A stretch of DNA of 64,000 bases. It comes from Pseudomonadales bacterium (GTDB lineage: Bacteria > Pseudomonadota > Gammaproteobacteria > Pseudomonadales > UBA5518). Each line of letters starts with the position of its first letter. Position 1 is the stretch's first letter. Both the position numbers and the translations under genes were made by a program. The DNA is taken from positions 234,078 through 298,077 of the forward strand of contig JACKOP010000005.1 in assembly GCA_024234165.1 (NCBI GenBank), read 5' to 3'. The notes under the pieces are model-generated. The model was not told the origin of the DNA. It worked only from the letters and a program-made list of their open reading frames with translations, and ran no database searches. Shown one piece after another: positions 14,751 to 38,443 of the stretch.

Positions 14751-14761
14751 GGGCACACTCC

Positions 14762-22824: not shown

Positions 22825-23251
22825 CTGCGCCCCCCAATCGATGTGCCGACTGTAGGTGGCCGCGTCACGCCGCGGCATCCGCCGGCAGGGATGGGTCAGG
22901 CAAGGCAGAAGGAGGATGCGGCATCGTCCGAAGGAACTATGCCCATCGGCGGCGCGTCATCGTGACTCGACGGCGCAAGCTGACTGTTGGAGCAAGCAGC
23001 TCCCACGGGAGCGAGAGGAAATGGACGCCATGTTCTGGTCATCCGGCAGCATGCGTGCTATACGGCAAGTTGCCGCGAAAAAACACGGCGAACTTGCGAA
23101 CCTGATCGAAAGGAAAGACGAGCAGGATGTTGTTTTTCATGACTTTGGATTCTGGAGATTTTTTATCAGTGTTTGGATGGCGCTCGAAGTCGCTGCGTGC
23201 TAGATGGATGAGTGCCGTGTTACAACACGGACGATTCCCGTCCACTCACTG

Positions 23252-23624
23252 TTAGTTTCGCTCCGCTTTTCGTGCAGAAGACAAAGTTGATGCTGTTCAG
23301 CGCGCAGGCGTTGTTGCACCAGAAAGCGCTCGCCGTGATTTCGCCGAGTCGTGGTTCAAACCGAGCGGCTATCGGCCAACGGTGATATGCACCAGTTTTG
23401 GGGCATTTGCCGTTGTCAGCCGCTGACGTCAGTTGTTCCGCGCGCGACGGAGTCTGAGCCAGGCTTGTGTGCGTTTGGAGATATCGCAACGGGGCTTGCA
23501 AGCGTGTGGCCGCGCGCGGCAGAGTAAGGCTGGATAGCGCGCTGTGCGTGAAGTTTGGAAAGTCGAAACTAACCCATCGCTGCAGGCACGACGGCCCTGT
23601 CGGGCCGCGGCCTGAGCTCAAACG
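23252..23624 (+). mobile_element. gene cassette 1 (373 bp, no convincing ORF)
   Basis: Begins TTAGTT after G23251. Its attC R'' is AACTAAC, the exact complement of G+TTAGTT. Confidence 0.6.
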
Positions 23625-23630
23625 TTATGC
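23567..23630 (+). other. attC recombination site of cassette 1
   Basis: R'' is AACTAAC and R' is GTTATGC. Internal stems CAGGC/GCCTG and GGCCC/GGGCC. Confidence 0.7.
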
Positions 23631-23700
23631 GCTCTTGTGGCCGCGCAGCCTGATTCATGTGAAAATCTACGCCATTCTTCCTAGTCGGCACCCAATCTCC

Positions 23701-24339
23701 ATGAAATCCCCGAAGTTTGACCGTTCTAAGCATGTGTACCGAAACGATGCGTTCGCCGAATTGGTAAAGGACGCAGTTCGTTTCTTCAACGGGACCCCGG
23801 TTCATACGCTGCCTCCCCCAGAAGAATTTTTTGGAACGGGGGTATATGCGTTGTATTACACGGGCAAGAATCCGCAATACAAAAAGTACGCAGACCTAAA
23901 TCGGCTGGCTTACAGCCATCCAATTTATGTTGGCAAGGCTGTGCCAAAAGGCTGGCGGCAATCGCGAATCTCAGATGGCGAGGGGGTGCAGTCGAAGGAA
24001 CTGTATACGCGGTTGCGCGAGCATTCGAGGAGTATTACGCAGGGTGCCGGCTTAGAGCTTAAGGATTTCTCCAGCCGTTTCGTAATCTTCGAAAAAGAAG
24101 GCTCCGATATGATCGGAACCATTGAGGCTGCGCTAATTAAGTTAAACCGGCCGCTTTGGAATACCGCTGTTGATGGGTTTGGCAATCATGATCCCGGTAG
24201 TGGGCGCTATGAGCAGGCCAAGTCAGATTGGGATGTCATCCATCCTGGTCGATCTTGGGCAGAAAAATGTAATGGCCGTCCTACAGACAAGCGCACGATT
24301 CTCAGCAATATTGAGCGTCATCTTAAAAGTCTCGGGTGA
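23701..24339 (+). CDS. GIY-YIG restriction endonuclease, Eco29kI-like
   Basis: KFDRSKHVYRND, GVYALYYTG, PIYVGKAVPKGWRQSRI, IEAALIKLNRPLWNT, WDVIHPGRSWAEKC. From memory this resembles Eco29kI. It is immediately upstream of a C5-methyltransferase. Confidence 0.8.
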   Translation: MKSPKFDRSKHVYRNDAFAELVKDAVRFFNGTPVHTLPPPEEFFGTGVYALYYTGKNPQYKKYADLNRLAYSHPIYVGKAVPKGWRQSRISDGEGVQSKELYTRLREHSRSITQGAGLELKDFSSRFVIFEKEGSDMIGTIEAALIKLNRPLWNTAVDGFGNHDPGSGRYEQAKSDWDVIHPGRSWAEKCNGRPTDKRTILSNIERHLKSLG

Positions 24340-25511
24340 TTGCAATGCGTTCTTTGGAAGTGTTCTCGGGGGCCGGCGGCCTCGCAAAGGGCCTTGAGCA
24401 AGCGGGCTTCGAGCACTCTGCTTTTGTAGAGTTCAACAAGCATGCATGTGCATCACTCTCAGAGAACTTCACGCCAGAGAGAGTTTTCTTTGGAGACATA
24501 AGAGATTTTGATTTGGGTAGCGTGGGGTCTGTTGATGTTGTTGCAGGTGGCCCGCCGTGTCAGCCGTTCTCTCTTGGTGGCAAGCACAAAGCAGATCAAG
24601 ATGATCGAGACATGTTTCCTTATGCCATTAGAGCAATTGAGTTCCTTACGCCTAAGGCCTTTGTTTTTGAGAACGTAAAGGGCCTGCTTAGGCCAAGTTT
24701 CGCTGAGTATTTTGAATACATTATTCTTCGCCTTACTTATCCGGGCTTCTCAGCGAAGCCAAAGATGGCGTGGCAAGATCATCTGGCGCAACTTAGAGCG
24801 GCGAACAAGTTCGCGTACGCCGGCGTTAAGTATGACGTTCAATATAAACTCATAAACGCTGCGGACTATGGCGTTCCTCAAACCCGCGAGCGTGTGGTTA
24901 TCGTTGGAATTCGTTCAGACCTTAAGAAAACATGGTCCTTCCCGGCTGCAACACACTCGGAAGATCGGCTGCTTTGGGAAATGCATGTGTCGGGAGAGTA
25001 CTGGCGGCGGCACCGAGTGGCGCTTGCAAAGCGCCCCAGCATCGAACCGTCCATGCAAGAGCGGATCGCGCGCATCAACGAGCGTTATGGGCTCTTTGAG
25101 CCCGAACTTCTACCTTGGAAAACTGTGCGAGACGCGCTCCATGACGTTCCTGATCCACGGAGCAAGCATGGCATTGCAGACCACATCTTTAAGGATGGGG
25201 CGCGTAGTTACGCTGGCCACACTGGCAGTGATTATGACTGGCCTTCAAAGACCATTAAGGCCGGAGGCCATGGCGTGCCGGGCGGGGAGAACATGATCCG
25301 CTACGCGGATGAAAGCATTCGCTACTTCACCGTCTTTGAAGCAAAACGCATCCAAACCTTCCCGGATGATTTCATTATCAAAGGTGCGTGGGGCGAGGCA
25401 ATGCGTCAAATTGGCAACGCCGTCCCGGTTGCTCTAGGTGAAGTCTTTGGCACCCATCTTTGGTCGCTGCTCTCGAAAAAATATTCCGCTGCTAAGGCGT
25501 CTGCCAAGTAA
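24336..25511 (+). CDS. DNA (cytosine-5)-methyltransferase
   Basis: LEVFSGAGGL (motif I), GGPPCQPFS (motif IV), ENVKGL (motif VI), QTRERV, and GNAVPV (motif X). The GTG at 24336 overlaps the upstream stop. An alternative ATG lies at 24345. Confidence 0.93.
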   Translation: MIAMRSLEVFSGAGGLAKGLEQAGFEHSAFVEFNKHACASLSENFTPERVFFGDIRDFDLGSVGSVDVVAGGPPCQPFSLGGKHKADQDDRDMFPYAIRAIEFLTPKAFVFENVKGLLRPSFAEYFEYIILRLTYPGFSAKPKMAWQDHLAQLRAANKFAYAGVKYDVQYKLINAADYGVPQTRERVVIVGIRSDLKKTWSFPAATHSEDRLLWEMHVSGEYWRRHRVALAKRPSIEPSMQERIARINERYGLFEPELLPWKTVRDALHDVPDPRSKHGIADHIFKDGARSYAGHTGSDYDWPSKTIKAGGHGVPGGENMIRYADESIRYFTVFEAKRIQTFPDDFIIKGAWGEAMRQIGNAVPVALGEVFGTHLWSLLSKKYSAAKASAK

Positions 25512-25535
25512 TTGGCAATTAGTTTGAGTGTTCGC

Positions 25536-25589
25536 GCATAACGAATAGGGATAGGTCGCGCGCAGCCGCGACCTGATCCCGGGTTGAAC
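25536..25589 (+). other. attC recombination site of the R-M cassette
   Basis: GCATAAC-GAATAGGGATAGGTCGCG-CGCAGC-CGCGACCTGATCCCGG-GTTGAAC. The R'' GCATAAC is the complement of the cassette start G|TTATGC at 23624-23630. Confidence 0.85.
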
Positions 25590-25813
25590 AAGCCCGTGCC
25601 CTGGAGTGGCGAACGCTTTTTTATAGGGGAAAGCTTTTCGGACGTGTGAGGGCATCGTTGCCCGATCAGGCGGATGATTTTCACCAGACGAACGCGGCCC
25701 GCACCCGCGAGCGCAGCGTGTCTTGCCTGTCTGGATCCATCAGTGGCGCGAGGTCCTCCTCGGGAGTGGATTGCCGGCGAGCACACCACGCTCTCCGGGC
25801 CAGCGGATCATGT
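25584..25813 (-). mobile_element. truncated second copy of the recombinase/IS91 unit (transposase-distal end only)
   Basis: It is the reverse complement of about 31300-31536, with few mismatches. IS66 cuts it at 25814. Confidence 0.75.
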
Positions 25814-25834
25814 GTAAGCGGTCAAACGACGCCG

Positions 25835-27448
25835 TTATATCTTTCCGCAGGCGAGTATGGATTTCATGGGATCGTGGGCGAAGCGTGCCTTCCATTCTCG
25901 CGGCGTGAGCTCGACCGCCCGACTCGCCGGATGCACGCTGATGCGCTGCAGCACATCGACCAGGTAGGTGTAAGGATCCACGCCCTGTAGGCGGCAACTC
26001 ACCAGCAGGCTCTGGATAACCGCTACCCGCTCGGCACCGACCTCGGTCCAACAGAAGAGCCAATTGCGCCGTCCCATTGGAACCGCCCGCAGGCTGCGCT
26101 CCAGGTGGTTGGTGTCGATCGGCACATCCGGATCCGACAAGAACACCCGCAGGCTCGTCACCCGCGCCTTCGCGTACTGGATCGCCTTGGCGAGCGGGTT
26201 ACTCGGCAACAGATCCATGCGGTGGCACTGGTCGTCACACCAGTGCCAGAAGCGGTCGACGATCGGCTCGCTGTGCTGTGTTCGGTAAGCGAGCTTGTGT
26301 TCCCGGTCCAGGTTCTGTTCCCGGATGATCTGCTCGTGCCGGTACAGCGCGGCAATCATCGCCAGCGCCTCGGCCGCCGCCTGCGGTTCGGCATCCTGTG
26401 CCTGCTCGAAGCCTCGGCGGCAATGCGCCCAACAACTCGCGTGGGTAACGCCACCTTTGCGTGCCGCATAGGCGCTGTAGGCGGCGTAGCCGTCCGAGAG
26501 CAGCGTTCCCCGGAAGTCCGGCCCCAGGATTTTCTCGACATGGTGGTGCGCCCGGGTCGGCGCGTAGTGGAAGACGATCTCGTCGTCCTCGCCGTAGATC
26601 GGCCAGAGGTAGGCTGGCGCATCTTGCCCTGCTTCTCGCGTCCGCCTTGATCGGGGTCTCGTCCATCGCCACCACCGATCCGATCCGAGGAGGATGTGGG
26701 CGTGCTGGGCCGCTGCGATGGGGCGCAGCAGATCGATGGCCCGTCCGCTCCAGTTGCTGAGGCTGGTACGGCTCAGCTGGATGCCGCACTGGGCGATCCG
26801 CTGGTGCTGGCGATACAGCGGCAGGTGGTAGCAGAACTTGTCGACGAGCATTCCGGCCAGCAGGCTCACATCGGCCACGCAGCGCTCGAGCACGCTTGCC
26901 GGTGCCGGGGTGCTGACGATGCGCTGCTCTTCGACCAGCTTCCGGTCTGGTAGTGGTACTCGATGATCCCGTAGCTGCCCGGGCGTTGCGCCGCGGCGGT
27001 AGCTGACGCGCTCGGAGACCAGCTCGCGCCGATCCTCGGGTACGGCAGCAATCGCTGGATCGACGATGGTGACCACGTCGCGGGTGACATCCGGGCCAAA
27101 GCGCAATCCTGAGTCGTTCACCGCCGCATCGCGCACCTTGCGCTGGCGCGTGTAGGTGATCGACTGCTCGGGAGGCGGTGGGGATTTCTGCGGAGGTTCA
27201 AGCACACCGAGCGCATCGAGCAGGTTGCCCTGTACGGCGGGATCGATGACCAGTTGCTTTTCGCTCTTCTGCCCGAAGAGCTGGCGCTTGAACCAGTCGA
27301 GCTGCTGCTTCAGCGTTGCAATCTCGGCGCCGTACTGCTGCTTCAGCGTGCCGAGTTCCGTGCCAAACTTCTGCGTCATCGCGACCATCTGCACCGTAAG
27401 TTGCGCATTGGTTTGTTCGAGTTCGGCGATGCGCGAAGCGGTGTTCAA
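25835..27448 (-). pseudogene. IS66 TnpC transposase with two compensated frameshift patches
   Basis: Compared with copy 2, VVAMDETPIKAGREKQGKMRQ is replaced by out-of-frame DRWWRWTRPRSRRTREAGQDAP. LAQRPGSYGIIEYHYQTW is replaced by RGATPGQLRDHRVPLPDR. Confidence 0.75.
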
Positions 27449-27502
27449 GGGCGGAAAATACTGCAGGAAAACCGTGCCGCCATTGTACCGGAATGCCCCT
27501 GC

Positions 27503-27862
27503 TCATGCCGCTGTTCGGTAGCGTTTTCGCTGCCTTTTTATCTCGACGTCGACGCCTTCGAGCAGCGCCAGAAACTCGGTGGCGCACAGCGCACGTTTCA
27601 CGCGTCCATCGCGTGTCATCAGGCGGGCAAAGTGTCCGCGCTCGAGTCGCTTCGACCAGATCCAGTAGCCGCCCGTCTCGAAGCCGAGCACCTTGATCTG
27701 CGTGGCGCGGCGGTTGAGAAACGCGAACCATTGGCTGCTACTGCCCAGCGGGTCTTCTCCCAGGTGTTGCTTCACCCGCGCCGACAACCCATCGAACGAG
27801 CAGCGCATGTCGGTGGGCTCCAGACACAGCCAGATGCGCGATGCGCTGCTGACGCTCAGCAT
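27503..27862 (-). CDS. IS66 Orf2 (TnpB)
   Basis: MLSVSSASRIWLCLEPTDMRCSFDGLSARV. 119 aa, intact. Confidence 0.85.
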   Translation of the reverse strand: MLSVSSASRIWLCLEPTDMRCSFDGLSARVKQHLGEDPLGSSSQWFAFLNRRATQIKVLGFETGGYWIWSKRLERGHFARLMTRDGRVKRALCATEFLALLEGVDVEIKRQRKRYRTAA

Positions 27863-28200
27863 GGCGCGTCCCGGCGCAGCCGCAGCACAACGCCTGCGCC
27901 CAAATCAAGCTCTACTTCCCATGCGGGTGCGGCCGGTGACGCCTCGGTCTTGTCGACTATCGGTGCGGTCAATTCGACAAACAGCGCTTCAGGCCGAACA
28001 CCAACAGCGTCAACAACCCGTGCTCCGCGCAGCTTGCGCCGCCACAGCTCGAAGGTGCTCTTCGCCAGGCCGTGGCGGGTGCAGAACGCCTGCTGCGAAA
28101 CACCGCTTGCCTCGAACTCGCTGATCAACGCGCGCCACCGTGCCGCGCTGTGACGCGCATACTTGCGCACAGAACCTGAACCCGTCGATGCCGAACCCAT
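27856..28200 (-). CDS. IS66 Orf1 (TnpA, HTH)
   Basis: MGSASTGSGSVRKYARHSAARWRALISEFEASGVSQQAFCTRHGLAKSTFELWRRKL. Confidence 0.75.
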   Translation of the reverse strand: MGSASTGSGSVRKYARHSAARWRALISEFEASGVSQQAFCTRHGLAKSTFELWRRKLRGARVVDAVGVRPEALFVELTAPIVDKTEASPAAPAWEVELDLGAGVVLRLRRDAPC

Positions 28201-28288
28201 GGCGATACTCCTCCAACACCACTTCGTTGAAGCAGAGCATCGCGAAGGTTCAGACGGCATAACAGAACGGCGTGGTTTGGACGGTTAC

Positions 28289-28876
28289 CGCCTGATGGCG
28301 ATGCTCGAGGGCTGCGCAGAGCTCACGCTCGAGCGGCTGAACGAGGCCACGCAGGCCTGGGTCGAGATGGAGTACAACCGCCGTTCTCACAGCGAACTCG
28401 GCTGTTCTCCGCTGGCACGCTACGGCGACGGCACCGATGTCGGACGCGAGTGCCCCGGGAGCGAGCGGCTGCGCCAGGCGTTTCGCACCGAAGCCGTGCG
28501 CACCCAGCGGCGCTCCGACGGCACGTTCTCGCTCGAAGGCACACGCTTCGAGGTGCCCTCGCGCTACCGCCACCTCGCACGGCTCACGGTGCGCTACGCG
28601 CGCTGGGACCTGCGCACGGTCGAGCTGATCGATCCGCTGAGCGGGACGCCGATCTGTGCGCCCTACCCGCTGGACAAGACGGCTCACGCCAGCGCCGCGA
28701 GGCGCCTGCACGCAGTGCGCACGCCTCCGGTACCCGTGCTGCCCGACCCGCCGGCGCACAGCCCCATGGCGCCGCTGTTGCGCGCGCTCATGGTCGAGTA
28801 TGCCGCCACCGGGCTGCCCCCGGCCTACGTGCCCCTGTCCAACGACGCACCCCTTGCCGAGGATCCGCTGCGATGA
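28289..28876 (+). pseudogene. 5'-truncated Mu/Tn552-like DDE transposase (end of rve core plus Mu-transposase C-terminal domain)
   Basis: Begins abruptly at the IS66 end. WVEMEYNRRSHSELG and LTVRYARWDLRTVELID motifs. Confidence 0.65.
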
Positions 28877-29199
28877 ACAAGCAACTGCTCGCCCTTTATG
28901 GTCTGAAGTGGAATCCCTTCTCGCCCGAACTGCCCACCGAGGCGCTGCGCCTCACGCCGGCGGTGGAGAACTTCGCCTGGCGTATCGAGCACGCGCTCGT
29001 GCGCGAAGGCGGCTTCGCGCTGATCAGCGGCGATGTCGGTACGGGCAAGAGCGTGGCGCTGCGTCTGATCGCCGAGCGCCTCGCCCCCGTGCCGGATCTG
29101 ACCGTTGCCGCACTCACGCACCCGAGCGCCAACCTCGCCGACTTCTACCGCGAGCTCGGTGATCTGTTCGCCGTGGAGCTGCGCCCGCACAACCGCTGG
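28873..29199 (+). pseudogene. ExeA/TniB-like AAA ATPase, N-terminal fragment
   Basis: MNKQLLALYGLKWNPFSPELP, with Walker A GDVGTGKS. The reading frame is broken after ...RPHNRW by the 29200-31577 insertion. Confidence 0.75.
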
Positions 29200-29311
29200 T
29201 TGAACGAAGCCGCTTCGCGGCAGGAACAAGACGAGAAGAACGAGACGCCAAAACCGGGAAACTTCTCCGGCACCCCCAGGCCCGGGTGTGCATCACCAAA
29301 GGAGAAGCGAC

Positions 29312-30217
29312 ATGGATTCATCGGAGCAAACCCGTTTTGACGCACTGTACGCGAAGCATCTTAGAGCACTGAAGCTTCAAGGCAAGGCAGCGAAGACGAT
29401 CGATGGTTACGCACGAGTGCTGCGCCGGGTAGCCGCACACTTCGATCGCTGTCCGGATCGACTGGACGCGGAAGACTTCAAGTCCTACTTCGCCTCGCTG
29501 ATCGACGAGCGATCGTGGAGCCTGGTGAAGATCGAACGCTGCGGACTGCAGTTCTTCTACGAACACGTCCTGGAGCGGGAGTGGCCGTGGGTGGGCATGC
29601 TCAAGCCGCCGGTGGTGCACGCGCTGCCCGATGTGCTCAGCGTCGACGAGGTCGCACAGATCATCCGGGCGAGTCGCGAGCGGCGCTACCGGACGTTCTG
29701 GCTGACGACCTACAGCCTGGGCCTGCGTCTGGGCGAAGCGCTGCGGTTGCGGATCGGTGATATCGACAGCGCCCGTGCCCAGGTCCATATCCGCAGCGGC
29801 AAGGGGCACAAGGACCGCTTCGTGGTGCTGCCGGCACTGACCCTGCAGTGCCTGCGCCGCTACTGGCGTGATCATCGCCACCATGAGCTGTTGTTTCCAG
29901 GGCGTGCTGGACCGCAGGGTATTCCGGCTGCCACCTTCATGGATCGCGGCAGCACCCAGAAGGCGTTTGCCCGTGTCGTGGCCGACTGCGGCATCCGCAA
30001 GCGGGTGTCGATCCACAGTCTTCGCCATGCCTACGCCACCCACCTCATCGAAGTCGGCCTGAATCTGCGCGGTGTGCAGGAACTGCTCGGTCATGCCTGC
30101 CCGAAAACCACGGCGCGCTATGTGCACATGACGGACAAGTGCCGTGATGATCGCCGCGTGCTGATCGACGGCTTGATGGGCGAGTTGCACCAGCGTCTGC
30201 GGGAGGCTCGGTCATGA
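29312..30217 (+). CDS. tyrosine recombinase (XerD/IntI-like, without the IntI-specific insertion)
   Basis: AAGGAG sits 7 nt upstream of the ATG. LQFFYEHVLEREWPW, GLRLGEALRLRIGDID, GKGHKDR, SLRHAYATHL, LLGHACPKTTARYVH (R-K-H-R-H-Y set). Confidence 0.85.
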   Translation: MDSSEQTRFDALYAKHLRALKLQGKAAKTIDGYARVLRRVAAHFDRCPDRLDAEDFKSYFASLIDERSWSLVKIERCGLQFFYEHVLEREWPWVGMLKPPVVHALPDVLSVDEVAQIIRASRERRYRTFWLTTYSLGLRLGEALRLRIGDIDSARAQVHIRSGKGHKDRFVVLPALTLQCLRRYWRDHRHHELLFPGRAGPQGIPAATFMDRGSTQKAFARVVADCGIRKRVSIHSLRHAYATHLIEVGLNLRGVQELLGHACPKTTARYVHMTDKCRDDRRVLIDGLMGELHQRLREARS

Positions 30218-30250
30218 CCCAAGCCCTCGCCCCCCCTGCGTCTGGCCGAG

Positions 30251-31285
30251 GTGTTCGACGCCGGACACGCCGCCCTGATGGCGCGCTACGGAGCGCGCCT
30301 GCACCCCCGACAACACCAGGCGATGGCCGCCATCCGGGGCTGCCGAAGCGGTGAGCTCGGTGAACTGCACTGGCGCTGTCCCGACTGCAGTGCACGACAC
30401 CACACGCCCCGCTCCTGTGGTCATCGCAGCTGCCCGGCCTGCCAGAACCACTGCACCTCGCAGTGGCTCGATCGGCAACGCCGTAAGCTCCTGCCCGTGG
30501 ACTACTTCATGGTGACCTTTACCTTGCCGGCACCCTTGCGTGCCGCCGCGCAGGCGTACCCCGAAACCGTCTATGCCGCCTTGTTTCGCGCCGCCTCGCA
30601 GACCCTCAACGGTTTCGCGACGCGAAAGCTCAAGGCGGAACTCGGCCAATGCGCGGTACTGCACACCCACAACCGTCGTCTCGATCTGCACCCGCACGTG
30701 CACGTCATCGTGCCCGGAGGCGCAATCGATGCGCGGCGCCGGCAGTGGCGAAAACTCTCCGGGCGTTACCTCTTCAACGCCTTTGCCCTGGCCCGGGTGT
30801 TCCGCGCCCGTATGCTGCAGGCCCTGCAGCTCGCCGGCGTGCCGATCCCTGTCGGCCTGCCGCCGAAATGGGTGGTCGACTGTCGCCGTGTCGGTCGTGG
30901 CGAGCCGGCATTGCAGTACCTCTCGCGCTACCTCTATCGGGGTGTCATCCGCGAGCGCGACCTCCTCGACTACGACCGCCTCGCCGGCACCGTCACCTTC
31001 CGCTACCGTGACGCCAAGACCCGCCAGCCCGCACAGCGCACCCTGCCCATCGCCGAGTTCCTGTGGCGCGTGCTCGCCCACGTCCTGCCGACCGGATTCC
31101 GTCGTGTGCGCGAGTACGGATTCCTGCACTGCCGAGCCAGGCGACGCCTCGTTCTCGTGCAACTCGTCTTGCATGTGCTGGTCCAGGCGGCAACGTTGCG
31201 ACCACGCCCACCGCTGTGTTGCATGCGCTGCCATACCCCGATGATCGTCGTCGCCGTCACCAAACGCCGCAGACCCGACGGCTGA
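30251..31285 (+). CDS. IS91-family HUH-Y2 rolling-circle transposase (N-terminus uncertain or frameshifted)
   Basis: Zn-finger CPDCSARHHTPRSCGHRSCPACQ, HUH motif HPHVHVIVPGG, Y2 motif YLSRYLYRG. An ATG at 30214 (ATGA with the upstream stop) is out of frame by one C in a C7 run. Confidence 0.85.
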   Translation: MFDAGHAALMARYGARLHPRQHQAMAAIRGCRSGELGELHWRCPDCSARHHTPRSCGHRSCPACQNHCTSQWLDRQRRKLLPVDYFMVTFTLPAPLRAAAQAYPETVYAALFRAASQTLNGFATRKLKAELGQCAVLHTHNRRLDLHPHVHVIVPGGAIDARRRQWRKLSGRYLFNAFALARVFRARMLQALQLAGVPIPVGLPPKWVVDCRRVGRGEPALQYLSRYLYRGVIRERDLLDYDRLAGTVTFRYRDAKTRQPAQRTLPIAEFLWRVLAHVLPTGFRRVREYGFLHCRARRRLVLVQLVLHVLVQAATLRPRPPLCCMRCHTPMIVVAVTKRRRPDG

Positions 31286-31529
31286 GGCAACGTTCGCGGA
31301 TCGCCACATGATCCGCTGGCCCGGAGAGCGTGGCGTGCTCGCCGGCAATCCACTCCCGAGGAGGACCTCGCGCCACCGATGGATCCAGCCAGGCAAGACG
31401 TGCTGCGCTCGCGGGTGCGGGCCGCGTTCGCCTGGTGAAAATCATTCCGCCTGATCGGGCAACGACGCCCTCACGCGTCTGAAAAGCTTTCCCCTATAAA
31501 AAGCGTTCGCCACTCCGGGGCACGGGCTT

Positions 31530-31577
31530 GTTCAACCCGGGATCAGGTCGCGGCTGCGCGCGACCTATCCCTATTCG
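31530..31577 (+). other. attC-like site at the end of the recombinase/IS91 unit
   Basis: GTTCAAC-CCGGGATCAGGTCGCGG-CTGCGC-GCGACCTATCCCTATTC-G. G plus the unit's first 6 nt TTGAAC gives GTTGAAC, the complement of GTTCAAC. Confidence 0.7.
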
Positions 31578-32052
31578 ATGGGCTTCAAGGCGCTGCGTAC
31601 CCGCTGGATCGCCCATCTGGAGAGCACGCGGCTTCGCCCCGTGCTGCTGATCGACGAGGCGCAACAGGTCGCCCCGCTCGTGCTCTCGGAGTTGCGCCTG
31701 CTCGCCTCGGCGCACTTCGACTCGCGCAGCCTGCTGAGCGTCGTGCTCGCCGGCGACCAGCGTCTGAACGAGTTGCTGCGCCGCGACGAACTCCTGCTGC
31801 TCGGTTCGCGCATCCGCGCACGCCTCTCGCTGGAGTACGCCAGCCGCGAGGAACTGCTGGCCTGCCTGAAGCACCTGCTCGCAAGCGCCGGCGCCCCGCT
31901 CTGATGACACCCGAGCTGATGCACACCGTCTGCGACCACGCCATGGGTAACTACCGTGCGCTCACCACCATGGCCGCGGAACTGCTCGCCGCCGCCGCGC
32001 AGCGCGAGCTCGTCCAGCTCGACGAGAAGCTGTACCTCGCGGTGTTCACGCC
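31578..32052 (+). pseudogene. ExeA/TniB-like AAA ATPase, C-terminal fragment with an additional frameshift near 31895
   Basis: GFKALRTRWIAHLESTRLRPVLLIDEAQ (Walker B) continues the N-terminal fragment. The frame changes at ...SAGAPL* / MTPELMHTVCDHAMGNYRAL. Confidence 0.65.
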
Positions 32053-32445
32053 CCGGGGCAATCCGCCGGCACGCGCCGCACCCGGCTCACCAGCGCTTGA
32101 GCCGGCAACCATGAAATCGTCCCGGCACCACCCCATCGAATTCCCGAGCAGCTCAGCGACGAGGGCGCGGCACACATCCTCGACTTCCTCTACGAGGTGA
32201 TCCGCGCCTTCGAGTCGCGCTACTTCGTGCAGATCCGTCGCCACCATCGCCACACCGCCGCTGAGTACGCCGCCCAGCGCGCCGAGCGCACCCAGCTCGA
32301 ACTGCCCTCACAATCCCCGACGAGCCGTCCGACCCGGTCTTCTGAGCCATCGTCAGACCGTCGCCACAGCGCCTCGCAGCCGCCGGGCGCTGCGGTTGCG
32401 TCGCACCCAAAACGCGGTCGACACCGGCAGCGCCAATGCCGGACA

Positions 32446-32682
32446 CCTCGCAATATCACATCACGGCTGCAGACCATCAGAAAGCGTGATCAGCTCGCCA
32501 TCGATTACCGTGGTCATGCTCAGGTTACGGACGACTTGCGGGTTCCTCCGGGTAATCGGCTCGAAGCGCTGAGGGGCAGAAGATCTGGCCAGTACAGCAT
32601 TCGTATCAACGATCAATGGCGCGTCTGTTTTCGTTGGGCCGACTCAGGTGTCGAAGACGTCGAGATCGTGGATTACCACTGA
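32446..32682 (+). pseudogene. higB: HigB-like toxin lacking its N-terminus and start codon
   Basis: [49 protein letters not shown]. There is no in-frame start, and it is fused in frame to transposon-derived sequence upstream. Confidence 0.6.
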
Positions 32683-32694
32683 GGTGATGTTGTC

Positions 32695-33033
32695 ATGAGC
32701 AAGCTCGATCCCATTACTCCCGGCAAACTTCTCTTGGAGGAGTTCCTAGCGCCTATGGGGATCAGCCAGTACCGCCTGGCGAAGGAAGTCGATGTGCCGG
32801 CGCAGCGCATCAGCGAAATCGTTTCTGGCAAGCGCGCCATTACTGCGGATACGGACTTGCGGCTGTGCCGTTTCTTCGGTCTTTCCAGCGGCTACTGGTT
32901 GCGTGCGCAGGCCGCGCACGATACGGAGGTTGCCGAGAGGGAACTCGGCCCGGTTCTGAAGCGGATCAAACCATGGGCAGCAAATGCGACCGAACAACAC
33001 GGCGCAGCGGACGCCTCTTCGAGGCGCCGCTGA
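32695..33033 (+). CDS. higA: HigA-family antitoxin (XRE HTH)
   Basis: ITPGKLLLEEFLAPMGISQYRLAKEVDVPAQRISEIVSGKRAITADTDLRLCRFFG. Confidence 0.85.
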   Translation: MSKLDPITPGKLLLEEFLAPMGISQYRLAKEVDVPAQRISEIVSGKRAITADTDLRLCRFFGLSSGYWLRAQAAHDTEVAERELGPVLKRIKPWAANATEQHGAADASSRRR

Positions 33034-33048
33034 CCGCCATCGTTAGCC
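32992..33048 (+). other. probable attC site of the higBA cassette
   Basis: R' GTTAGCC (33042-33048) defines the next cassette start. It has an imperfect hairpin GGCGCAGCGGACGCC / GGCGCCGCTGACCGCC. The R'' GAACAAC is weak. Confidence 0.45.
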
Positions 33049-33053
33049 CCGCT

Positions 33054-33371
33054 TCAAATACCGGTAATGAGCAAGTCGAGAGCAGCAATAATTTCGTCAC
33101 GCTTCGAAGAAAGATCGATCGCCTTCGCTCCAAGCATCTTCTTCGGAACGCCGGCCAGTTGCGGCGTCACCATGACGTACTGCTTACCTTCAATCTCAAA
33201 GACTGGAGTCAACGTTTCGAGGATCTTTCCTTTCATCGCAGCTACTGAGTAGAGGGGCGCCACAACTCGCGTGGCCAGATCTTCAATCAGATCGCTTTGA
33301 ACGTTGAGCAGATAAGGAACGGTGCTCTTGGTGTCAGGGTTGGCGTTCTTGTGAACGGAAAATTGCGTCAT
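33054..33371 (-). CDS. ccdB: CcdB-family gyrase toxin
   Basis: MTQFSVHKNANPDTKSTVPYLLNVQSDL...LTPVFEIEGKQYVMVTPQLAGV. 105 aa. Confidence 0.85.
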   Translation of the reverse strand: MTQFSVHKNANPDTKSTVPYLLNVQSDLIEDLATRVVAPLYSVAAMKGKILETLTPVFEIEGKQYVMVTPQLAGVPKKMLGAKAIDLSSKRDEIIAALDLLITGI

Positions 33372-33616
33372 CAGAAGTTCCGCAGTCCGTCGCTGAATAC
33401 GCCGTGCTTCTCTACGTGGTCGTTATAGGCGTCAATCGAGGCCTTATTGTCGGCTAGCCATTTGGCCTTCTGTTTCTCCCGCAGGGCATTGGCCAGAGCC
33501 TGCTCCAGGGTGGCGGACAGGTTTATGTCCAATTCCTTGGCTTTGGTGAGCAAGTCCCCGTTAACGCTGAGATTTGCAGGTCGCTTGGGGGCATGGGTAT
33601 CGTAGGTCGGCACCAT
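33371..33616 (-). CDS. ccdA: CcdA-family antitoxin
   Basis: 81 aa. KRPANLSVNGDLLTKAKELDINLSATLEQAL. Its stop abuts the ccdB start. Confidence 0.8.
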   Translation of the reverse strand: MVPTYDTHAPKRPANLSVNGDLLTKAKELDINLSATLEQALANALREKQKAKWLADNKASIDAYNDHVEKHGVFSDGLRNF

Positions 33617-33688
33617 AGCGGGCTCCCTCTGGGGTTTGTATGCGCATACGATATACGCATATCAAGGCGCAAGCCAGTGTGGTGGCGG

Positions 33689-33766
33689 GGCTAACGAATA
33701 GGTGAGCCTGACCAGACTACCCTCCGCGCTGCGCGCTCCGGCGGCGGCTCATGCACGCCGTTAGGG
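33689..33766 (+). other. attC site of the ccdAB cassette
   Basis: R'' is GGCTAAC, the complement of the cassette start G|TTAGCC. R' is GTTAGGG. Internal stem TGAGCC/GGCTCA. Confidence 0.8.
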
Positions 33767-33979
33767 TTGCTTGGCAAGTGCTTGCGCCAGCGTCATCGCG
33801 ATCGCCGGGAATTCCTTGAGTATCTTCTTGTCGGCAGTAACGAGTTTCGCGTTCAGGCGCTTTGCCAGCGCAACAAACTCACAGTCGTACGCAGAGCACT
33901 CGCTGGATTCCACCAGCCTCAGGACGTCGAGGGAGGGAACTTCATATTCCGAATCTGCGTAAGCGGTCAAACGACGCCG

Positions 33980-35590
33980 TTATATCTTTCCGTAGGCGAG
34001 TATGGATTTCATGGGATCGTGGGCGAAGCGTGCCTTCCACTCGCGTGGCGTGAGCTCGACCGCCCGACTCGCCGGATGTTCGCTGATGCGCTGCAGTACA
34101 TCGACCAGGTAGGTGTAGGGGTCAACGCCCTGTAGGCGGCAACTCACCAGCAGGCTCTGGATAACCGCTACCCGCTCGGCACCGACCTCGGTCCAACAGA
34201 AGAGCCAATTGCGCCGTCCCATTGGAACCGCCCGCAGGCTGCGCTCCAGGTGATTGGTGTCGATCGGCACATCCGGATCCGACAAGAACACCCGCAGACT
34301 CGTCACACGCGCTTTTGCGTACTGGATCGCCTTGGCGAGCGGGTTACTCGGCAACAGATCCATGCGGTGGCACTGGTCGTCACACCAGTGCCAGAAGCGG
34401 TCGACGATCGGCTCGCTGTGCTGTGTTCGGTAAGCGAGCTGGTGTTCCCGGTCCAGGTTCTGTTCCCGGATGATCTGCTCGTGCCGGTACAGCGCGGCGA
34501 TCATCGCCAGCGCTTCGGCCGCCGCCTGGGGTTCGGCATCCTGTGCCTGCTCAAAGCCTCGGCGGCAATGCGCCCAGCAACTCGCGTGGGTGACGCCACC
34601 CTTGCGTGCCGCATAGGCGCTGTAGGCAGCGTAGCCGTCCGAGAGCAGCGTTCCCCGGAAGTCCGGACCCAGGATCTTCTCGACATGGTGGTGCGCCCGG
34701 GTCGGGGCGTAGTGGAAGACGATCTCGTCGTCCTCGCCGTAGATCGGCCAGAGGTAGGCCTGGCGCATCTTGCCCTGCTTCTCGCGTCCCGCCTTGATCG
34801 GGGTCTCGTCCATCGCCACCACCGATCCACTGAGGATGTGGGCGTGCTGGGCCGCTGCGATGGGGCGCAGCAGATCGATGGCCCGTCCGCTCCAGTTGCT
34901 GAGGCTGGTGCGGCTCAGCTGGATGCCGCACTGGGCGATCCGCTGGTGCTGGCGATACAGCGGCAGGTGGTAGCAGAACTTGTCGACGAGCATTCCGGCC
35001 AGCAGGCTCACATCGGCCACGCAGCGCTCGAGCACGCTTGCCGGTGCCGGGGTGCTGACGATGCGCTGCTCTTCGACCAGCTTCCAGGTCTGGTAGTGGT
35101 ACTCGATGATCCCGTAGCTACCCGGGCGTTGCGCCAGGCGGTAGCTGACGCGCTCGGAGACCAGCACGCGCCGCTCCTCGGGTACGCCAGCAATCGCCGG
35201 ATCGACGATGGTGACCACGTCGCGGGTGACATCCGGACCAAAGCGCAGTCCCGAGTCGTTCACCGCCGCATCGCGCACCTTGCGCCGGCGCGTGTAGGTA
35301 ATCGACTGCTCGGGAGGCGGTGGGGACTTCTGCGGAGGTTCAAGCACGCCGAGTGCATCGAGCAGGTTGCCCTGCACGGCAGGATCGATGCTCAGCTGCT
35401 TCTCGCTCTTCTGCCCGAAGAGCTGACGCTTGAACCAGTCGAGCTGCTGCTTCAGCGCTGCGATCTCGGCGCCGTACTGTTGCTTCAGTGTGCTGAGATC
35501 CGCGCCAAATTTCTGCGTCATCGCGGCCATCCGCACCGTGAGTTGCGCATTGGTGTGTTCGAGTTCGGCGATGCGCGAAGCGGTGTTCAA
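33980..35590 (-). CDS. IS66 TnpC DDE transposase (apparently intact)
   Basis: 536 aa. Contains VVAMDETPIK and the C-terminal CWAHCRRGF region. Confidence 0.9.
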   Translation of the reverse strand: MNTASRIAELEHTNAQLTVRMAAMTQKFGADLSTLKQQYGAEIAALKQQLDWFKRQLFGQKSEKQLSIDPAVQGNLLDALGVLEPPQKSPPPPEQSITYTRRRKVRDAAVNDSGLRFGPDVTRDVVTIVDPAIAGVPEERRVLVSERVSYRLAQRPGSYGIIEYHYQTWKLVEEQRIVSTPAPASVLERCVADVSLLAGMLVDKFCYHLPLYRQHQRIAQCGIQLSRTSLSNWSGRAIDLLRPIAAAQHAHILSGSVVAMDETPIKAGREKQGKMRQAYLWPIYGEDDEIVFHYAPTRAHHHVEKILGPDFRGTLLSDGYAAYSAYAARKGGVTHASCWAHCRRGFEQAQDAEPQAAAEALAMIAALYRHEQIIREQNLDREHQLAYRTQHSEPIVDRFWHWCDDQCHRMDLLPSNPLAKAIQYAKARVTSLRVFLSDPDVPIDTNHLERSLRAVPMGRRNWLFCWTEVGAERVAVIQSLLVSCRLQGVDPYTYLVDVLQRISEHPASRAVELTPREWKARFAHDPMKSILAYGKI

Positions 35591-35647
35591 GGGCGGAAAA
35601 TACTGCAGGAAAACCGTGCCGCCATTGTACCGGAATGCCCCTGTTGT

Positions 35648-36003
35648 TCATGCCGCTGTTCGGTAGCGTTTTCGCTGCCTTTTTATCTCGACGTCGACGC
35701 CTTCGAGCAGCGCCAGAAACTCGGTGGCGCACAGCGCGCGTTTCACGCGTCCATCACGTGTCATCAGGCGTGCAAAGTGTCCGCGCTCGAGTCGTTTCGA
35801 CCAGATCCAGTAGCCGCCCGCCTCGAAGCCGAGCACCTTGATCTGCGTGGCGCGACGGTTGAGAAACGCGAACCATTGGCTGCCACCCAGTGGGTCTTCT
35901 CCCGGTGTTGCTTCACCCGCGCCGACAACCCATCGAACGAGCAGCGCATGTCGGTGGGCTCCAGACACAGCCAGATGCGCGATGCGCTGCTGACGCTCAG
36001 CAT
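35648..36003 (-). pseudogene. IS66 Orf2 (TnpB), frameshifted
   Basis: Relative to copy 1 it has a 3-nt and a 1-nt deletion (CCCAGGTG to CCCGGTG). This splits MLSVSSASRIWLCLEPTDMRCSFDGLSARVKQH from ...DPLGGSQWFAFLNRRATQIKVLGFE. Confidence 0.7.
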
Positions 36004-36046
36004 GGCGCGCGCCCGGCGCAGCCGCAGCACCACGCCTGCGCCCAAA

Positions 36047-36343
36047 TCAAGCTCTACTTCCCATGCGGGTGCGGGCTGGTGACGCCTCGGTCTTGTCGAC
36101 TATCGGTGCGGTCAATTCGACAAACAGCGCTTCGGGCCGAACGCCCGCCACATCAGCGTTTCGGGTTTCGCGTAGCTTGCGCCGCCACAGCTCGAAGGTG
36201 CTCTTCGCCAGGCCGTGGCGGGTGCAGAACGTCCGCTGCGAAACGCCGCTCGCCTCGAACTCGCTGATCAGCACGCGCCACTGTGCCGCGCTGTGGCGCG
36301 CATACTTGCGCACGGAATCTGAACCCGTCGATACCGAACCCAT
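36047..36343 (-). CDS. IS66 Orf1 (TnpA) with an altered, shortened C-terminus
   Basis: 98 aa. It diverges from copy 1 after ...DKTEASPA because of a 1-nt insertion. Confidence 0.6.
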   Translation of the reverse strand: MGSVSTGSDSVRKYARHSAAQWRVLISEFEASGVSQRTFCTRHGLAKSTFELWRRKLRETRNADVAGVRPEALFVELTAPIVDKTEASPARTRMGSRA

Positions 36344-36648
36344 GGCGATACTCCTCCAACACCACTTCGTTGAAGCAGAGCATCGCGAAGGTTCAGACGG
36401 GATAACAGAACGGCTTCGTTTGGCCGGTTACGAATCTGCGAGCAGAGTCTCGGCTTCAGTTTGAATGGAATAGGCGTGCTCGAAGGAAAGCAGCTCCTTT
36501 CTTATATATAGCGCAAGCACATTGCGCAGCTCGCTGCGCCAAAGTGCGGGGGCGGCCCAATGAGGTTCCTTTGCCAGCAGCTGCTCTGCCTCGGCGCTGA
36601 GGTCTGAGGGCAGGTAGAGGTAGGCAATGATGTTGCTATCAACAACGA

Positions 36649-36894
36649 TCACGGGCGGCCTTCATCTATGGCCTCGAGAATATCGGCCGCTTTGAACTTC
36701 TTGCCCTTGAGGCTCTCCCGAATCTGCCGAGCGCGGGCCATATGCTCCTCATTGCTGGCCTTGGAAGGCAGCAAGACCCGCTCCAGGCAGGCTATGGCTT
36801 CGCTGTTAATGCTCCGGTGGTGGGCATCGGCAGCCTGCTTGAGGCTGTCGTAGATCTCATCGGGTATGTTCTTGAGGGTAATGGTTGCACCCAT
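36649..36894 (-). CDS. Arc/FitA-like ribbon-helix-helix antitoxin (VapB-type)
   Basis: 81 aa. MGATITLKNIPDEIYDSLKQAADAHHRSINSEAIACLE. Its stop overlaps the disrupted PIN gene start. Confidence 0.75.
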   Translation of the reverse strand: MGATITLKNIPDEIYDSLKQAADAHHRSINSEAIACLERVLLPSKASNEEHMARARQIRESLKGKKFKAADILEAIDEGRP

Positions 36895-36956
36895 AGCGGC
36901 TTACCTTGGAACCATATTGGAACCAATATGGTATCTCTGGGCGCCGGGCGGAGCAA

Positions 36957-37010
36957 CCCTAACGAATAGGGATAGGTCGCGCGCCGCCGCGACCTGAGCC
37001 CGGGTTAGGG
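36957..37010 (+). other. attC site of the vapBC::IS66 cassette
   Basis: CCCTAAC-GAATAGGGATAGGTCGCG-CGCCGC-CGCGACCTGAGCCCGG-GTTAGGG. R'' is the complement of the cassette start G|TTAGGG at 33760. Confidence 0.88.
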
Positions 37011-37391
37011 CCGCTCTACGCGTCGTTCCGTATGCTTCTTGGTATTCTTGATGAAGTTGGCGTCGAAGGTCTTGAGCGTGTCCTGATCCTTGCTTAGTGC
37101 AAGATGAAACGCATCGGCAAAGTCGAATCCCACCTCGTGCCAGGCAATGACCTGGGCAATGAGCGTGCCGTCGCTAACTGTCACGTTTTGTAGGCCACAT
37201 ACGCGCCGGAATGCGGTGCATATGTCTGCTGGGGTTAAGTCGAAGGCGGCGCGTAATACCCACTCGGTTTCCAGCAGCACGGTGTCCGGAATGAAGATGT
37301 CTTCGGAAGCGAAGAGTTTGTGGCTGGCTTTGCTCTGGATCGCGTTGTCGCTGACCAGCAGCCGTACCAGTACATTGGTATCAATTGCCAT
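37005..37391 (-). CDS. PIN-domain toxin (VapC family)
   Basis: MAIDTNVLVRLLVSDN...IFIPDTVLLETEWVL...DFADAFHL. Confidence 0.85.
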   Translation of the reverse strand: MAIDTNVLVRLLVSDNAIQSKASHKLFASEDIFIPDTVLLETEWVLRAAFDLTPADICTAFRRVCGLQNVTVSDGTLIAQVIAWHEVGFDFADAFHLALSKDQDTLKTFDANFIKNTKKHTERRVERP

Positions 37392-37644
37392 CACGCCACT
37401 TACTCCGCATGTCGTGAGCCAATGCTGCCGCAATTTCCTCGTCCGTCTTCGGGGATACCTTATCTTTGAACATGCCAAAGACCTCGGAGAGGTCCGAGGG
37501 GGCAAAAGTGGCCTTGGGCTTAAGCAGGAGGCCGTCCCCGGTGTCTATCACCATGAGTTCAAGGCCGGGCTCCCAGTGATGGGTGCTCCGGAAGGCCTTG
37601 GGTATGATCACTTGGCCTTTGCTGGAGAGTTTAGTGGTTTCCAT
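37381..37644 (-). CDS. AbrB/MazE/SpoVT-family antitoxin
   Basis: METTKLSSKGQVIIPKAFR. 87 aa. 11-nt overlap with the PIN gene. Confidence 0.85.
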   Translation of the reverse strand: METTKLSSKGQVIIPKAFRSTHHWEPGLELMVIDTGDGLLLKPKATFAPSDLSEVFGMFKDKVSPKTDEEIAAALAHDMRSKWRDGN

Positions 37645-37715
37645 AAGGGCGCCCTAAAAGTAAGACGAAGGTAAGATTATGCCTGCGGGGCCTGCCTGTC
37701 AAATCGAGCAGGCTG

Positions 37716-37769
37716 CCCTGACAAATAGGGATAGCCCGCGCGCAACCGCGACCTGATCCCGGATTGAAC
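37716..37769 (+). other. attC site of the PIN/AbrB cassette (slightly degenerate)
   Basis: CCCTGAC-AAATAGGGATAGCCCGCG-CGCAAC-CGCGACCTGATCCCGG-ATTGAAC. R'' has one mismatch to the complement of the cassette start TTAGGG. R' has A in place of G. Confidence 0.7.
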
Positions 37770-37830
37770 AAGCCCGTGCCCCGGAGTGCCGGGCCAAAGG
37801 TTTTCCAGTCCGGCAAGCCTTGGCGGCAGG

Positions 37831-38253
37831 CTATGCGGCCGCTGTCATGTGCCGGCGGTGGACGAGATCGAACAGAACCCCGGCCACGATCAGCAGCACG
37901 ATGGCTTCCACCACCTGCACGCCCAGCAGCAGCCAGGTCGCGCCTTCCACGCCGACGAAGAACTGCATGTTGGGCAGCACGACGAACAGTCCGCCCCACA
38001 GGCCCCACCAGATCGCCTTGCCGACGCCGCCGGCCGGATAGAGCCGCATGAACAACCACAGGAACATGGTGATCTGGACCAGGTAGGTCAGGAACAGGAA
38101 GGGCATCAGCGCGGCCATTTCCGCGCTGGAGCGCTGCGGGTAGCCTTCGTACAGATTGGGCACGGCCACTGCGTGAAACGCCACATCGGCCACGAAGAGG
38201 ATCACGGCCAAAATCACGCTCGTCACCAGAAACCGCACCGTCAGCTTGTTCAT
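37831..38253 (-). CDS. small integral membrane protein (4 predicted TM segments), function unknown
   Basis: Starts MNKLTVRFLVTSVILAVILFV. Hydrophobic throughout. Confidence 0.55.
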   Translation of the reverse strand: MNKLTVRFLVTSVILAVILFVADVAFHAVAVPNLYEGYPQRSSAEMAALMPFLFLTYLVQITMFLWLFMRLYPAGGVGKAIWWGLWGGLFVVLPNMQFFVGVEGATWLLLGVQVVEAIVLLIVAGVLFDLVHRRHMTAAA

Positions 38254-38443
38254 GGATTTCCCCTCATCGATGCCGCTTTCGTGCAGTTGGTATTTGTATA
38301 CGTGCTGATCCGTAATGCAAGCAATCGCCATTTGCCGCTGCTGTCTTCGCTGTTCACCCGCGCGCCGACGTGCGCCATGTGTTTCTTCTTTGGTGATGCA
38401 TACCCCGGGATGAAGCGCTCGCGCGGGTCCGTGCCCGACTGAC

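Follow-up and report, generated by a model that had tools for sequence, protein, structure and literature searches.

Chromosomal cassette arrays without an integrase are a common and well-described situation, and such integrase-less integron cassette arrays (CALIN) are reportedly treated as a class by IntegronFinder. Mobile elements that target attC sites are known as well, in the form of the IS1111-attC group and the group IIC-attC introns. Both of the latter are also cited in PMC9229058. Sedentary chromosomal integrons are rich in toxin-antitoxin (TA) cassettes (PMC11023631). Insertion sequences of the IS91 family are organised as terIS, accessory open reading frame (ORF), tnpA and oriIS, with subterminal palindromes, no target duplication and a target tetranucleotide resembling that of terIS (PMC13181058), and the tyrosine recombinases linked to some of them are the closest relatives of the integron integrase IntI, forming an 'integron-like' subgroup without the IntI insertion (bioRxiv 10.1101/542381). 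Here we describe a 64-kb stretch of DNA (the window), whose proteins are annotated as those of a 'Pseudomonadales bacterium' metagenome-assembled genome (MAG). We conclude that positions 23008–37794, between narK1 and narL, are very probably a degenerate chromosomal integron with an attI and cassettes reading left to right, no intI, and insertions of an attC-targeting IS91-family element which supply what had looked like a shared attC core. As an integron that has no intI, which IntegronFinder would report as a CALIN, the array is of a well-known and ordinary kind; the relationship between IS91 and attC is the moderately interesting part.

Boundaries, left end and polarity of the array

The earlier note on this DNA had proposed an array in which each unit begins with the complement of the R'' box of its own attC. 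We judged the attC identity of the sites by box pairs, hairpin folding (z scores) and homology to IntI-linked loci. All five box pairs were re-found where they had been placed: GTTAGTT at 23251 with AACTAAC at 23567, GTTATGC at 23624 with GCATAAC at 25536, GTTAGCC at 33042 with GGCTAAC at 33689, and GTTAGGG at 33760 with CCCTAAC at 36957 are exact 7-mer complements, and GTTAGGG at 37004 pairs with CCCTGAC at 37716 with one mismatch. The rule for gene cassettes (first 6 nt complementary to the R'' of their own attC) thus holds in 5/5 cases. There are three distinct 7-mers among the five pairs (CCCTAAC/GTTAGGG recurs), and as the same 7-mer is used in three of the five, only three pairs are independent. 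The rule is also symmetric, each left box being the reverse complement of the preceding right box for either choice of top strand; what it shows is that the units are bounded by core sites, and not in which direction the array reads.

Direction and origin are given by the left end of the island, which comprises:

23008–23251, plus strand: attI region, homologue of an intI-attI spacer, assigned by homology to the integron of the same organism; crossover at G23251|T23252
23252–23624, plus strand: cassette 1, 373 bp, with no convincing ORF; native attC boxes at 23567–23630 (R'' AACTAAC, R' G|TTATGC)

Only the narK1 promoter was previously thought to lie to the left of the cassettes. We find instead that 23008–23255 matches the spacer between intI and attI in a complete integron of the same organism (L035/L033, described below) at 89% identity across 248 nt, rising to ~98% in the final 75 nt, and that the alignment stops at CACTG|TTAG, which is the boundary (G|TTAG) of cassette 1. 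The attI region of a related species (L021) is 71% identical to the same segment over 73 nt and also ends at G|TT; this alignment scores 66–70, compared to 18.5±3.4 (max 36) for shuffled sequences, and is the best match in the whole window. L021 encodes an IntI of 477 bits with 87% identity to its L035 counterpart. A promoter scan of 22850–23720 found none.

Spacer homology starts ~52 nt downstream of the intI start, so that intI is wholly missing. The head of the array thus carries an attI by homology to the IntI-adjacent regions of L035 (89%) and L021 (71%), as a complete integron would, but tblastn of IntI against the 64-kb window matched only an IS91-linked recombinase (30% identity), and no integron integrase lies within ~4 kb of the array, as is usual for a CALIN. 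The description of the locus as integrase-less stands in that no IntI is encoded in the 64 kb, but an IntI-like tyrosine recombinase gene is present within the array itself, at 29312–30217. Loss of intI is one possible history and the arrival of a copied attI-array segment another; either way this is not a bare attC cluster.

The first attC (23567–23630) folds well (z = -3.0 to -3.4). On the minus strand its 3' arm has three bulges of one base each; after the last come 3 bp, a 5-nt spacer and GTTAGTT, as in the canonical bottom-strand layout of attC (PMC3053210). Together with the attI homology, this means that the array reads left to right, as had been proposed. The same attC is 90–96% identical to attCs at 1761–1822 and 11044–11094 of Urc, the reverse complement of L034+L033 from the integron of the same organism. 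A reversed polarity of the whole array was at first favoured (the hairpin bulge discussed below is on the plus strand, three TA toxin genes stop in or just before right-hand boxes, and the element inserted in the AAA_22 gene appears cassette-like in that direction), and was dropped on the attI homology, a class 1 integron case (below) and the complete integron of the same organism.

That integron is a second locus, found through a look-up of a recombinase variant; it occurs also in long metagenome contigs, and shares assembly GCA_024234195.1 with the window locus (L038 and L003, respectively). It encodes a genuine IntI (L035:14911–15780; 414 bits from a partial sequence, against a TIGR02249 cutoff of 265) and contains an attI, a first cassette that is aadA-like and has a classic attC, additional cassettes, the rve/AAA_22 transposon also seen in the window, two IS66 copies and four elements combining a recombinase with IS91. 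Its IntI, with a near-identical attI, could act on the window array in trans. The first cassette of this locus encodes an aadA-family aminoglycoside nucleotidyltransferase (NF012157, 497 bits, cutoff 375; L035 13768–14595, minus strand, and L033 19517–20302), and its attC is of the classic aadA type (TGTCTAACAATTCGTTCAAGCC…GTTAGCA).

These homologies bear on the suggestion that the DNA from narK1 to narL is no integron but an accumulation of mobile elements, the AAC…GTT pairs having arisen from the target preference of IS91. A loose structural scan for attC (AAC, 3–8 nt, hairpin, 1–8 nt, GTT) is indeed not discriminating, as it returns ~30 sites per strand in the GC-rich window, and a single 7-mer serves in three of the five box pairs. 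However, three independent exact 7-mer pairs, an attI homologous to two IntI-linked loci and a first attC homologous to attCs of the integron of the same organism make this reading highly improbable.

In its core-site-bounded cassettes without a nearby intI, its self-promoted TA cassettes, several of them inverted, and its embedded insertion sequences (IS), the island is similar to CALIN and to sedentary chromosomal integrons. Unlike these, it keeps attI and ~250 bp of the intI-attI spacer, only two or three of its native attC sites survive, and the remaining boundaries are either hybrids of R'' with an IS91 end or composites.

The shared core and a recombinase-bearing IS91 element

The core shared by three of the sites, which we re-found at 25543, 36964 and 37723, had been regarded as a native attC family with a single polarity. 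A fourth copy is present on the minus strand at 31538–31577, in a 273-nt inverted repeat (25542–25814 / 31305–31577), and the core (GAATAGGGATAGGTCGCG…CCCGG) proved to be the oriIS-end hairpin of a 2.38-kb IS91-family element inserted at R''. The intact copy lies in a ~7.5-kb stretch passed over by the earlier reader (25585–33042), which also contains an IS66 and a truncated rve/AAA transposon. In total, the array has been invaded by two IS66 copies, one rve/AAA_22 transposon and at least three or four insertions of the IS91-family element, of which the following were delimited:

29200–31577, plus strand: copy i, intact, 2378 bp; terIS end TTGAACGAAGCCGCTTCGCGGC, tyrosine recombinase gene (29312–30217), Y2 transposase gene (30251–31285), oriIS hairpin (31538–31577)
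25543–25813, minus strand: copy ii, reduced to 271 nt at the oriIS end (hairpin, GTTGAAC and the sequence that follows tnpA); it runs against the array and is truncated by the first IS66
37723–37794, minus strand: copy iii, a decayed 72-nt oriIS remnant, 88–93% identical to the other copies, forming the right end of the island

Copy ii and 31305–31577 form an inverted repeat with 95–99% complementarity. The order of parts in copy i is TTGAACGAAGCCGCTTCGCGGC…recombinase…transposase…GTTCAAC-CC-hairpin-CCTATTCG. Its Y2 transposase is a clear member of the IS91 family (NF033538, 345 bits, cutoff 125; Pfam Y2_Tnp and Zn_Tnp_IS91). For the recombinase, IntI is the best-scoring model, at 146 bits (TIGR02249, cutoff 265); it keeps the catalytic residues and belongs to the same 'integron-like' subgroup as IntI, but differs from IntI in falling below the cutoff, in lacking the ~35-residue IntI-specific insertion and in having no adjoining attI. 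At the DNA level, part of its gene (29724–29832, positions 525–633 of the element query) is similar to intI3 of class 3 integrons, with 72.5% identity over 109 nt on many plasmids, which fits the placement of the recombinase among the closest IntI relatives. A further 35 nt at 38374–38408, upstream of a small ORF by a gene for a 166-aa membrane protein, are 88% identical, in inverted orientation, to the ribosome-binding site and start region of the recombinase gene (29281–29315); this similarity to the region upstream of the recombinase gene was set aside as too short to interpret.

Compared with the known members of the family (IS91, IS801, IS1294, ISCR, and the ISShvi3 type with an upstream tyrosine recombinase), the element has the same order of terIS, upstream ORF, tnpA and oriIS, a Y2 HUH transposase, a subterminal palindrome at either end, insertion without target duplication, a target tetranucleotide matching that of terIS, and defective derivatives with deletions as well as miniature ones. 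It is unlike them in that its target is YAAC in the R'' box of attC rather than GTTC/CTTG, that its accessory ORF is an IntI-like recombinase and not Orf121, and that its oriIS hairpin mimics an attC stem.

Two empty sites show that the hairpin belongs to the element. Among near-identical contigs retrieved from public assemblies by a look-up of the ccdB protein, L004 carries an uninterrupted AAA_22 gene (...CGCTGG|ATGGGC...) at the point where the window has 2378 bp, with no target duplication and a single ambiguous G. Since the hairpin is present in the insert and absent from the empty site, it is part of the element. The second case is a class 1 integron on the E. coli IncC plasmid RCS41_p (L031), in which a 2346-bp homologue (recombinase 53% and transposase 45% identical to those of the window element) is located between aadA1 and qacEdelta1, in the direction opposite to the cassettes. 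The attC of aadA1 is intact in L032 and split at GAATTG|TTAGAC in L031, and megablast flank patterns reveal it uninterrupted in many of 3,308 matching plasmids. Read on the cassette top strand, the element of L031 directly follows R'' (…TGTCTAA|C AAATAAGGATAGG-hairpin-GTGTTGAAC AAGCCC…), and the remainder of the attC has been displaced to the far end (…GCTTCGTTCAA|C AATTCGTTCAAGCC…GCGTTAGAT). The window junctions at 25536 (GCATAAC|GAATAGGG…GTTGAACAAGCCC) and 37716 have the same arrangement, and so does L021, next to its IntI. Both empty sites are free of target duplication. The target of the element is YAAC| and its terIS end GTTCAAC|, a tetranucleotide unlike the GTTC/CTTG used by IS91.

In GTDB genomes, a pattern scan recovered the hairpin in 20 loci, of which ~16 have a conserved GTTGAACAAGCCCGG…TTTATAGGGGAAAG after it and variable, RYYYAAC-like flanks before it (GCCTAAC, GTCTAAC, GCATAAC and others); copies are carried by 8 contigs of a single Lysobacterales MAG. 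A multicopy insertion sequence behaves in this way, and one array does not. Scanning metagenomes with an alignment of the recombinase returned 70 loci (recombinases 42–96% identical) with conserved ends, GCTTGTTCAAC-hairpin-CTATCCyTATTy| on the right and G|TTGAACGAAGCCGCTnCGCGGCAG on the left. All left flanks end in G, and 17/18 right flanks start with GTT. When tested strictly as the bottom strand of an attC lacking R'' (xxxxAAC, 3–8 nt, single hairpin, 3–8 nt, G), 15/32 distinct left flanks passed, compared to 49/827 control GTT positions from the same loci (Fisher p = 5e-10).

The second locus of the same organism behaves accordingly: all four of its IS91 elements are inverted relative to the cassettes and IntI, each is preceded by RYYYAAC|, and the first is followed by GTTCAA|C AATTC GCTGCAGGCGCGACGGCCCTGACGGGCCGCGGCCTGAGCTCAAACGTTAGGT, the remainder of an attC of the same type as that at 23567–23630 of the window. 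These four copies (Urc 8951–19890) share a 276-nt deletion, corresponding to window 30158–30433, which took away the last part of the recombinase gene and the first part of the transposase gene. As non-autonomous copies they therefore spread after the deletion, and the intact copy is the one in the window; presumably they were mobilised in trans by an intact copy such as this one.

The simpler view would be a plain CALIN with a homogeneous native attC family (GAATAGGGATAGG…), beside which an IS91 element came to lie by chance. The hairpin does carry R''/R'-like boxes at a suitable spacing, one copy (36957–37010) has no IS body, and attCs within one sedentary chromosomal integron are often alike. 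However, the hairpin moved together with the element into a coding sequence and into the attC of aadA1, and these two empty sites already contradict the simpler view; in other phyla it is conserved with the element and not with cassettes; and the cassette attCs of the second locus belong to another family, sharing GCTGCAG…CTGAGC L boxes, with every hairpin there attached to an IS91 end. We regard this view as improbable.

Three further observations outside the window concern the element or its hairpin. A Tahibacter MAG (L013, 989–1296) contains a ~310-bp miniature consisting of the terIS end and oriIS hairpin only, within the palindrome GCCTAAC-N6-G|TTAGGC and ~600 bp away from an intI-like fragment. 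In one Verrucomicrobia genome (L020, 3424–3463) there is a perfectly symmetric hairpin, flanked on either side by GAATA/TATTC spacers and AAC/GTT boxes (TCCAACGAATAGGGATAGATCGCG…CGCGATCTATCCCTATTCGTTGGG), and no IS91 body. L044 (~3160–3233) has four tandem 13-nt units (GAACGACTGGTT) holding the TTGAAC end motif directly before the terIS end, which looks like terminal slippage or re-initiation.

Insertion into attC and its consequences

In attC sites the element inserts, without target duplication, directly 3' of the AAC of the R'' box and always inverted relative to the cassettes, as the empty sites of this population and of the attC of aadA1 prove. Its oriIS hairpin then replaces the attC stem beside the kept R'', and the native attC remainder is displaced to the terIS end (GTTCAA|C). 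This explains how three 'attC sites' come to share one core while the cassette-start/R'' rule still holds. Following the IS91 paradigm, transposition would most likely proceed by the rolling-circle, single-strand route from oriIS to terIS, with the Y2 enzyme cutting 3' of YAAC in the target as well as in terIS (GTTCAAC|). Read antisense to tnpA, the element and its target are 5'-(target YAAC)|GAATAGGG…GTTCAAC|-3', so that the Y2 transposase probably makes both cuts 3' of AAC. As the insertion into the AAA_22 gene shows, attC is a preferred, not a required, target.

The same junctions can be read in the opposite polarity, with the hairpin as a true attC, the sense strand of the element being its top strand, and the recombinase-IS91 unit as a cassette (TTGAAC … R'' GTTCAAC-hairpin-TATTCG) moved by IntI or by its own recombinase through G|TT and secondary sites such as the G|AT of AAA_22, the Y2 enzyme being uninvolved. 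The secondary-site rule of IntI1 is GWT, which the G|AT target fits; in that orientation the cassette rule holds for the unit, which begins TTGAAC and has R'' GTTCAAC; the left flanks in G and right flanks in GTT agree with it, the single bulge of the hairpin is on the strand expected for that polarity, and the recombinase is of the integron-like subgroup. Cleavage by Y2 after AAC, however, predicts the same junctions, the ends have IS91 architecture (terIS/oriIS palindromes and a tetranucleotide common to target and terIS), and the recombinase is without the IntI domain that reads extrahelical bases. Further to that, the units are inverted in every array of known polarity, which capture by IntI would not give. 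Movement as a cassette is therefore an unlikely explanation of these insertions, and we retain Y2-driven insertion into attC.

The hairpin at 36964–37003, which differs at 2/35 positions from that of the intact element and has no IS body attached, is most simply explained as the scar of an excised pseudo-cassette (TTGAAC…element…GTTCAAC plus attC remainder); excision would have occurred by site-specific recombination at G|TT through IntI or the element's own recombinase.

Several observations weigh against the interpretation of the island as a degenerate integron invaded by attC-targeting IS91 elements. It does not account for the arrival of an attI-plus-array segment without intI beside narK1. 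Roughly half of the left flanks fail the strict attC test, although several of these are attC-like by eye, and the insertion into the AAA_22 gene is clearly outside any attC. The ambiguity of the junctions (G, or GTT) fails to separate Y2 cleavage (AAC|) from a tyrosine-recombinase crossover (G|TT). The bulged base of the solo hairpin (36957) is on the strand unfavourable for canonical IntI recombination in the polarity of the array, so that we infer the excision-scar step and claim no more for it. The boundary site at 33689–33766 is a composite rather than a clean attC: R'' GGCTAAC is followed by GAATAGG (7 nt of the IS91 end) and by 17 nt identical to the left inverted repeat of the rve/AAA_22 transposon, up to G|TTAGGG, and the site folds poorly as an attC hairpin (z = -0.7). 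Finally, the start of a higBA cassette is missing, GTTCGGT or GTTGTTC occurring only inside IS66; it was probably lost to the rve/AAA_22 transposon.

IS91 elements with an IntI-like recombinase target attC across very different bacteria, the class 1 integron of the E. coli IncC plasmid being an example. As the element splits one attC into two attC-like sites, it can relocate, separate or delete cassettes, and may itself move as a cassette. Tentatively, recombinase-bearing IS91 elements might represent a widespread and so far undescribed class of attC-specific integron parasites, each copy being a pseudo-cassette bounded by two attC-like sites, which IntI or its own recombinase could excise, shuffle and re-insert, with native attCs replaceable by the hairpin as at 36957. 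If this is true, the association with attC of these recombinases, the closest known relatives of IntI, would offer a testable route for the origin of integron integrases and attC recognition, or for their capture by a transposon.

Like the IS1111-attC group and the group IIC-attC introns, the element is attC-specific, has a fixed orientation relative to the cassettes and is spread over many integrons. Unlike them, it uses a HUH Y2 transposase and a tyrosine recombinase instead of a DEDD transposase or a retro-element, and it enters at the R'' box, splitting one attC into two attC-like sites with cassette-like flanks. In the literature searched on IS91 with attC or a tyrosine recombinase we found passing remarks only, PMC9229058 placing ISShvi3 'adjacent to an attC' and PMC12772301 reporting attC calls where ISCR28 ends, and no description of attC targeting. 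An IS91 end hairpin beside a kept R'' resembles an attC and can be miscounted as one by eye and, judging from the ISCR28 calls (PMC12772301), by attC-finding software; such miscounts would inflate apparent 'attC families' and CALIN counts.

Cassettes and other insertions of the island

The cargo was confirmed as an Eco29kI-type restriction-modification (R-M) system, higBA, ccdAB, an IS66-split FitA-like/PIN pair and an AbrB/PIN pair. Inversion of the TA cassettes, which had been described as a general feature, applies to three TA pairs; the genes of the R-M and higBA cassettes run in the direction of the array:

23625–25542, plus strand: R-M cassette with an Eco29kI-family endonuclease and a C5 methyltransferase (Pfam RE_Eco29kI, 237 bits; DNA_methylase, 209 bits); starts TTATGC and ends at its own R'' (GCATAAC, 25536–25542)
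32524–33042, plus strand: higBA cassette remnant (Pfam HigB-like, HTH_3); attC boxes at 32989–33048 (R'' ACCGAAC, R' G|TTAGCC)
33043–33760, minus strand: ccdAB cassette, genes inverted (Pfam CcdA and CcdB); boundary site 33689–33766
33761–37004, minus strand: vapBC-type cassette (FitA-like antitoxin and PIN toxin), genes inverted; ends with R'' CCCTAAC (36957–36963) and the solo IS91 hairpin
37005–37722, minus strand: AbrB/MazE-PIN cassette, genes inverted (Pfam PIN and MazE_antitoxin); starts TTAGGG and ends with R'' CCCTGAC (37716–37722)
25814–28288, minus strand: first IS66, three ORFs (Pfam DDE_Tnp_IS66, TnpB_IS66)
33959–36431: second IS66, inside the PIN toxin gene, which it splits in frame; 8-bp target duplication GAATCTGC
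28289–32523, plus strand: truncated rve/AAA_22 transposon that retains the C-terminal part of rve, the gene for the AAA_22 ATPase, which is split at 29199/31578, and a small ORF; right inverted repeat ending ...GTGGTCATGCTCA at 32523

The R-M cassette has lost its native attC beyond R''. Sites 25536–25590 and 37716–37771 are hybrids of a native R'' and an IS91 element end, and 36957–37010 consists of R'', hairpin and G|TTAGGG; in all three, an attC that moves with its cassette is not what is seen, since everything beyond R'' is an oriIS end moving with the element. The attC of higBA (32989–33048), in contrast to these, folds well into a bulged hairpin (z = -3.1) whose spacers are 5 nt long, and the 5' end of higB has been removed by the rve/AAA_22 transposon.

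Both IS66 copies are typical of their family, with three ORFs (tnpA, tnpB and the DDE gene tnpC) and GTAAGCG termini, and are 95% identical to one another; the 8-bp duplication is confined to the second. The flanks of the first (GATCATGT and CGCCTGAT) show no target-site duplication, and it joins the truncated IS91 end of copy ii to the truncated rve gene, which implies that two IS66 copies recombined with one another and thereby deleted or inverted DNA. The stretch from the R-M cassette to the transposon was probably lost in this way.

L004 carries the rve/AAA_22 transposon uninterrupted, and the breakpoint at 32523 is also found in Urc and L006. The full transposon is 3.55 kb long and encodes a 201-aa helix-turn-helix protein, the rve transposase, the AAA_22 ATPase and a 78-aa ORF between terminal repeats TGAGC[C/A]TGACCA. 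It is present in both integron loci (window 28289–32523, L004 ~1225–4776 and Urc 3861–7268). The 17-mer of its left end (TGAGCCTGACCAGACTA), which occurs in L004, is also found inside the boundary site at window 33703–33719. A population variant, L006, is without window 32524–32906 (383 bp, comprising higB and the 5' part of higA); a core-site event was considered for this deletion and rejected, as its junction is not at core sites and it starts exactly at the right end of the transposon.

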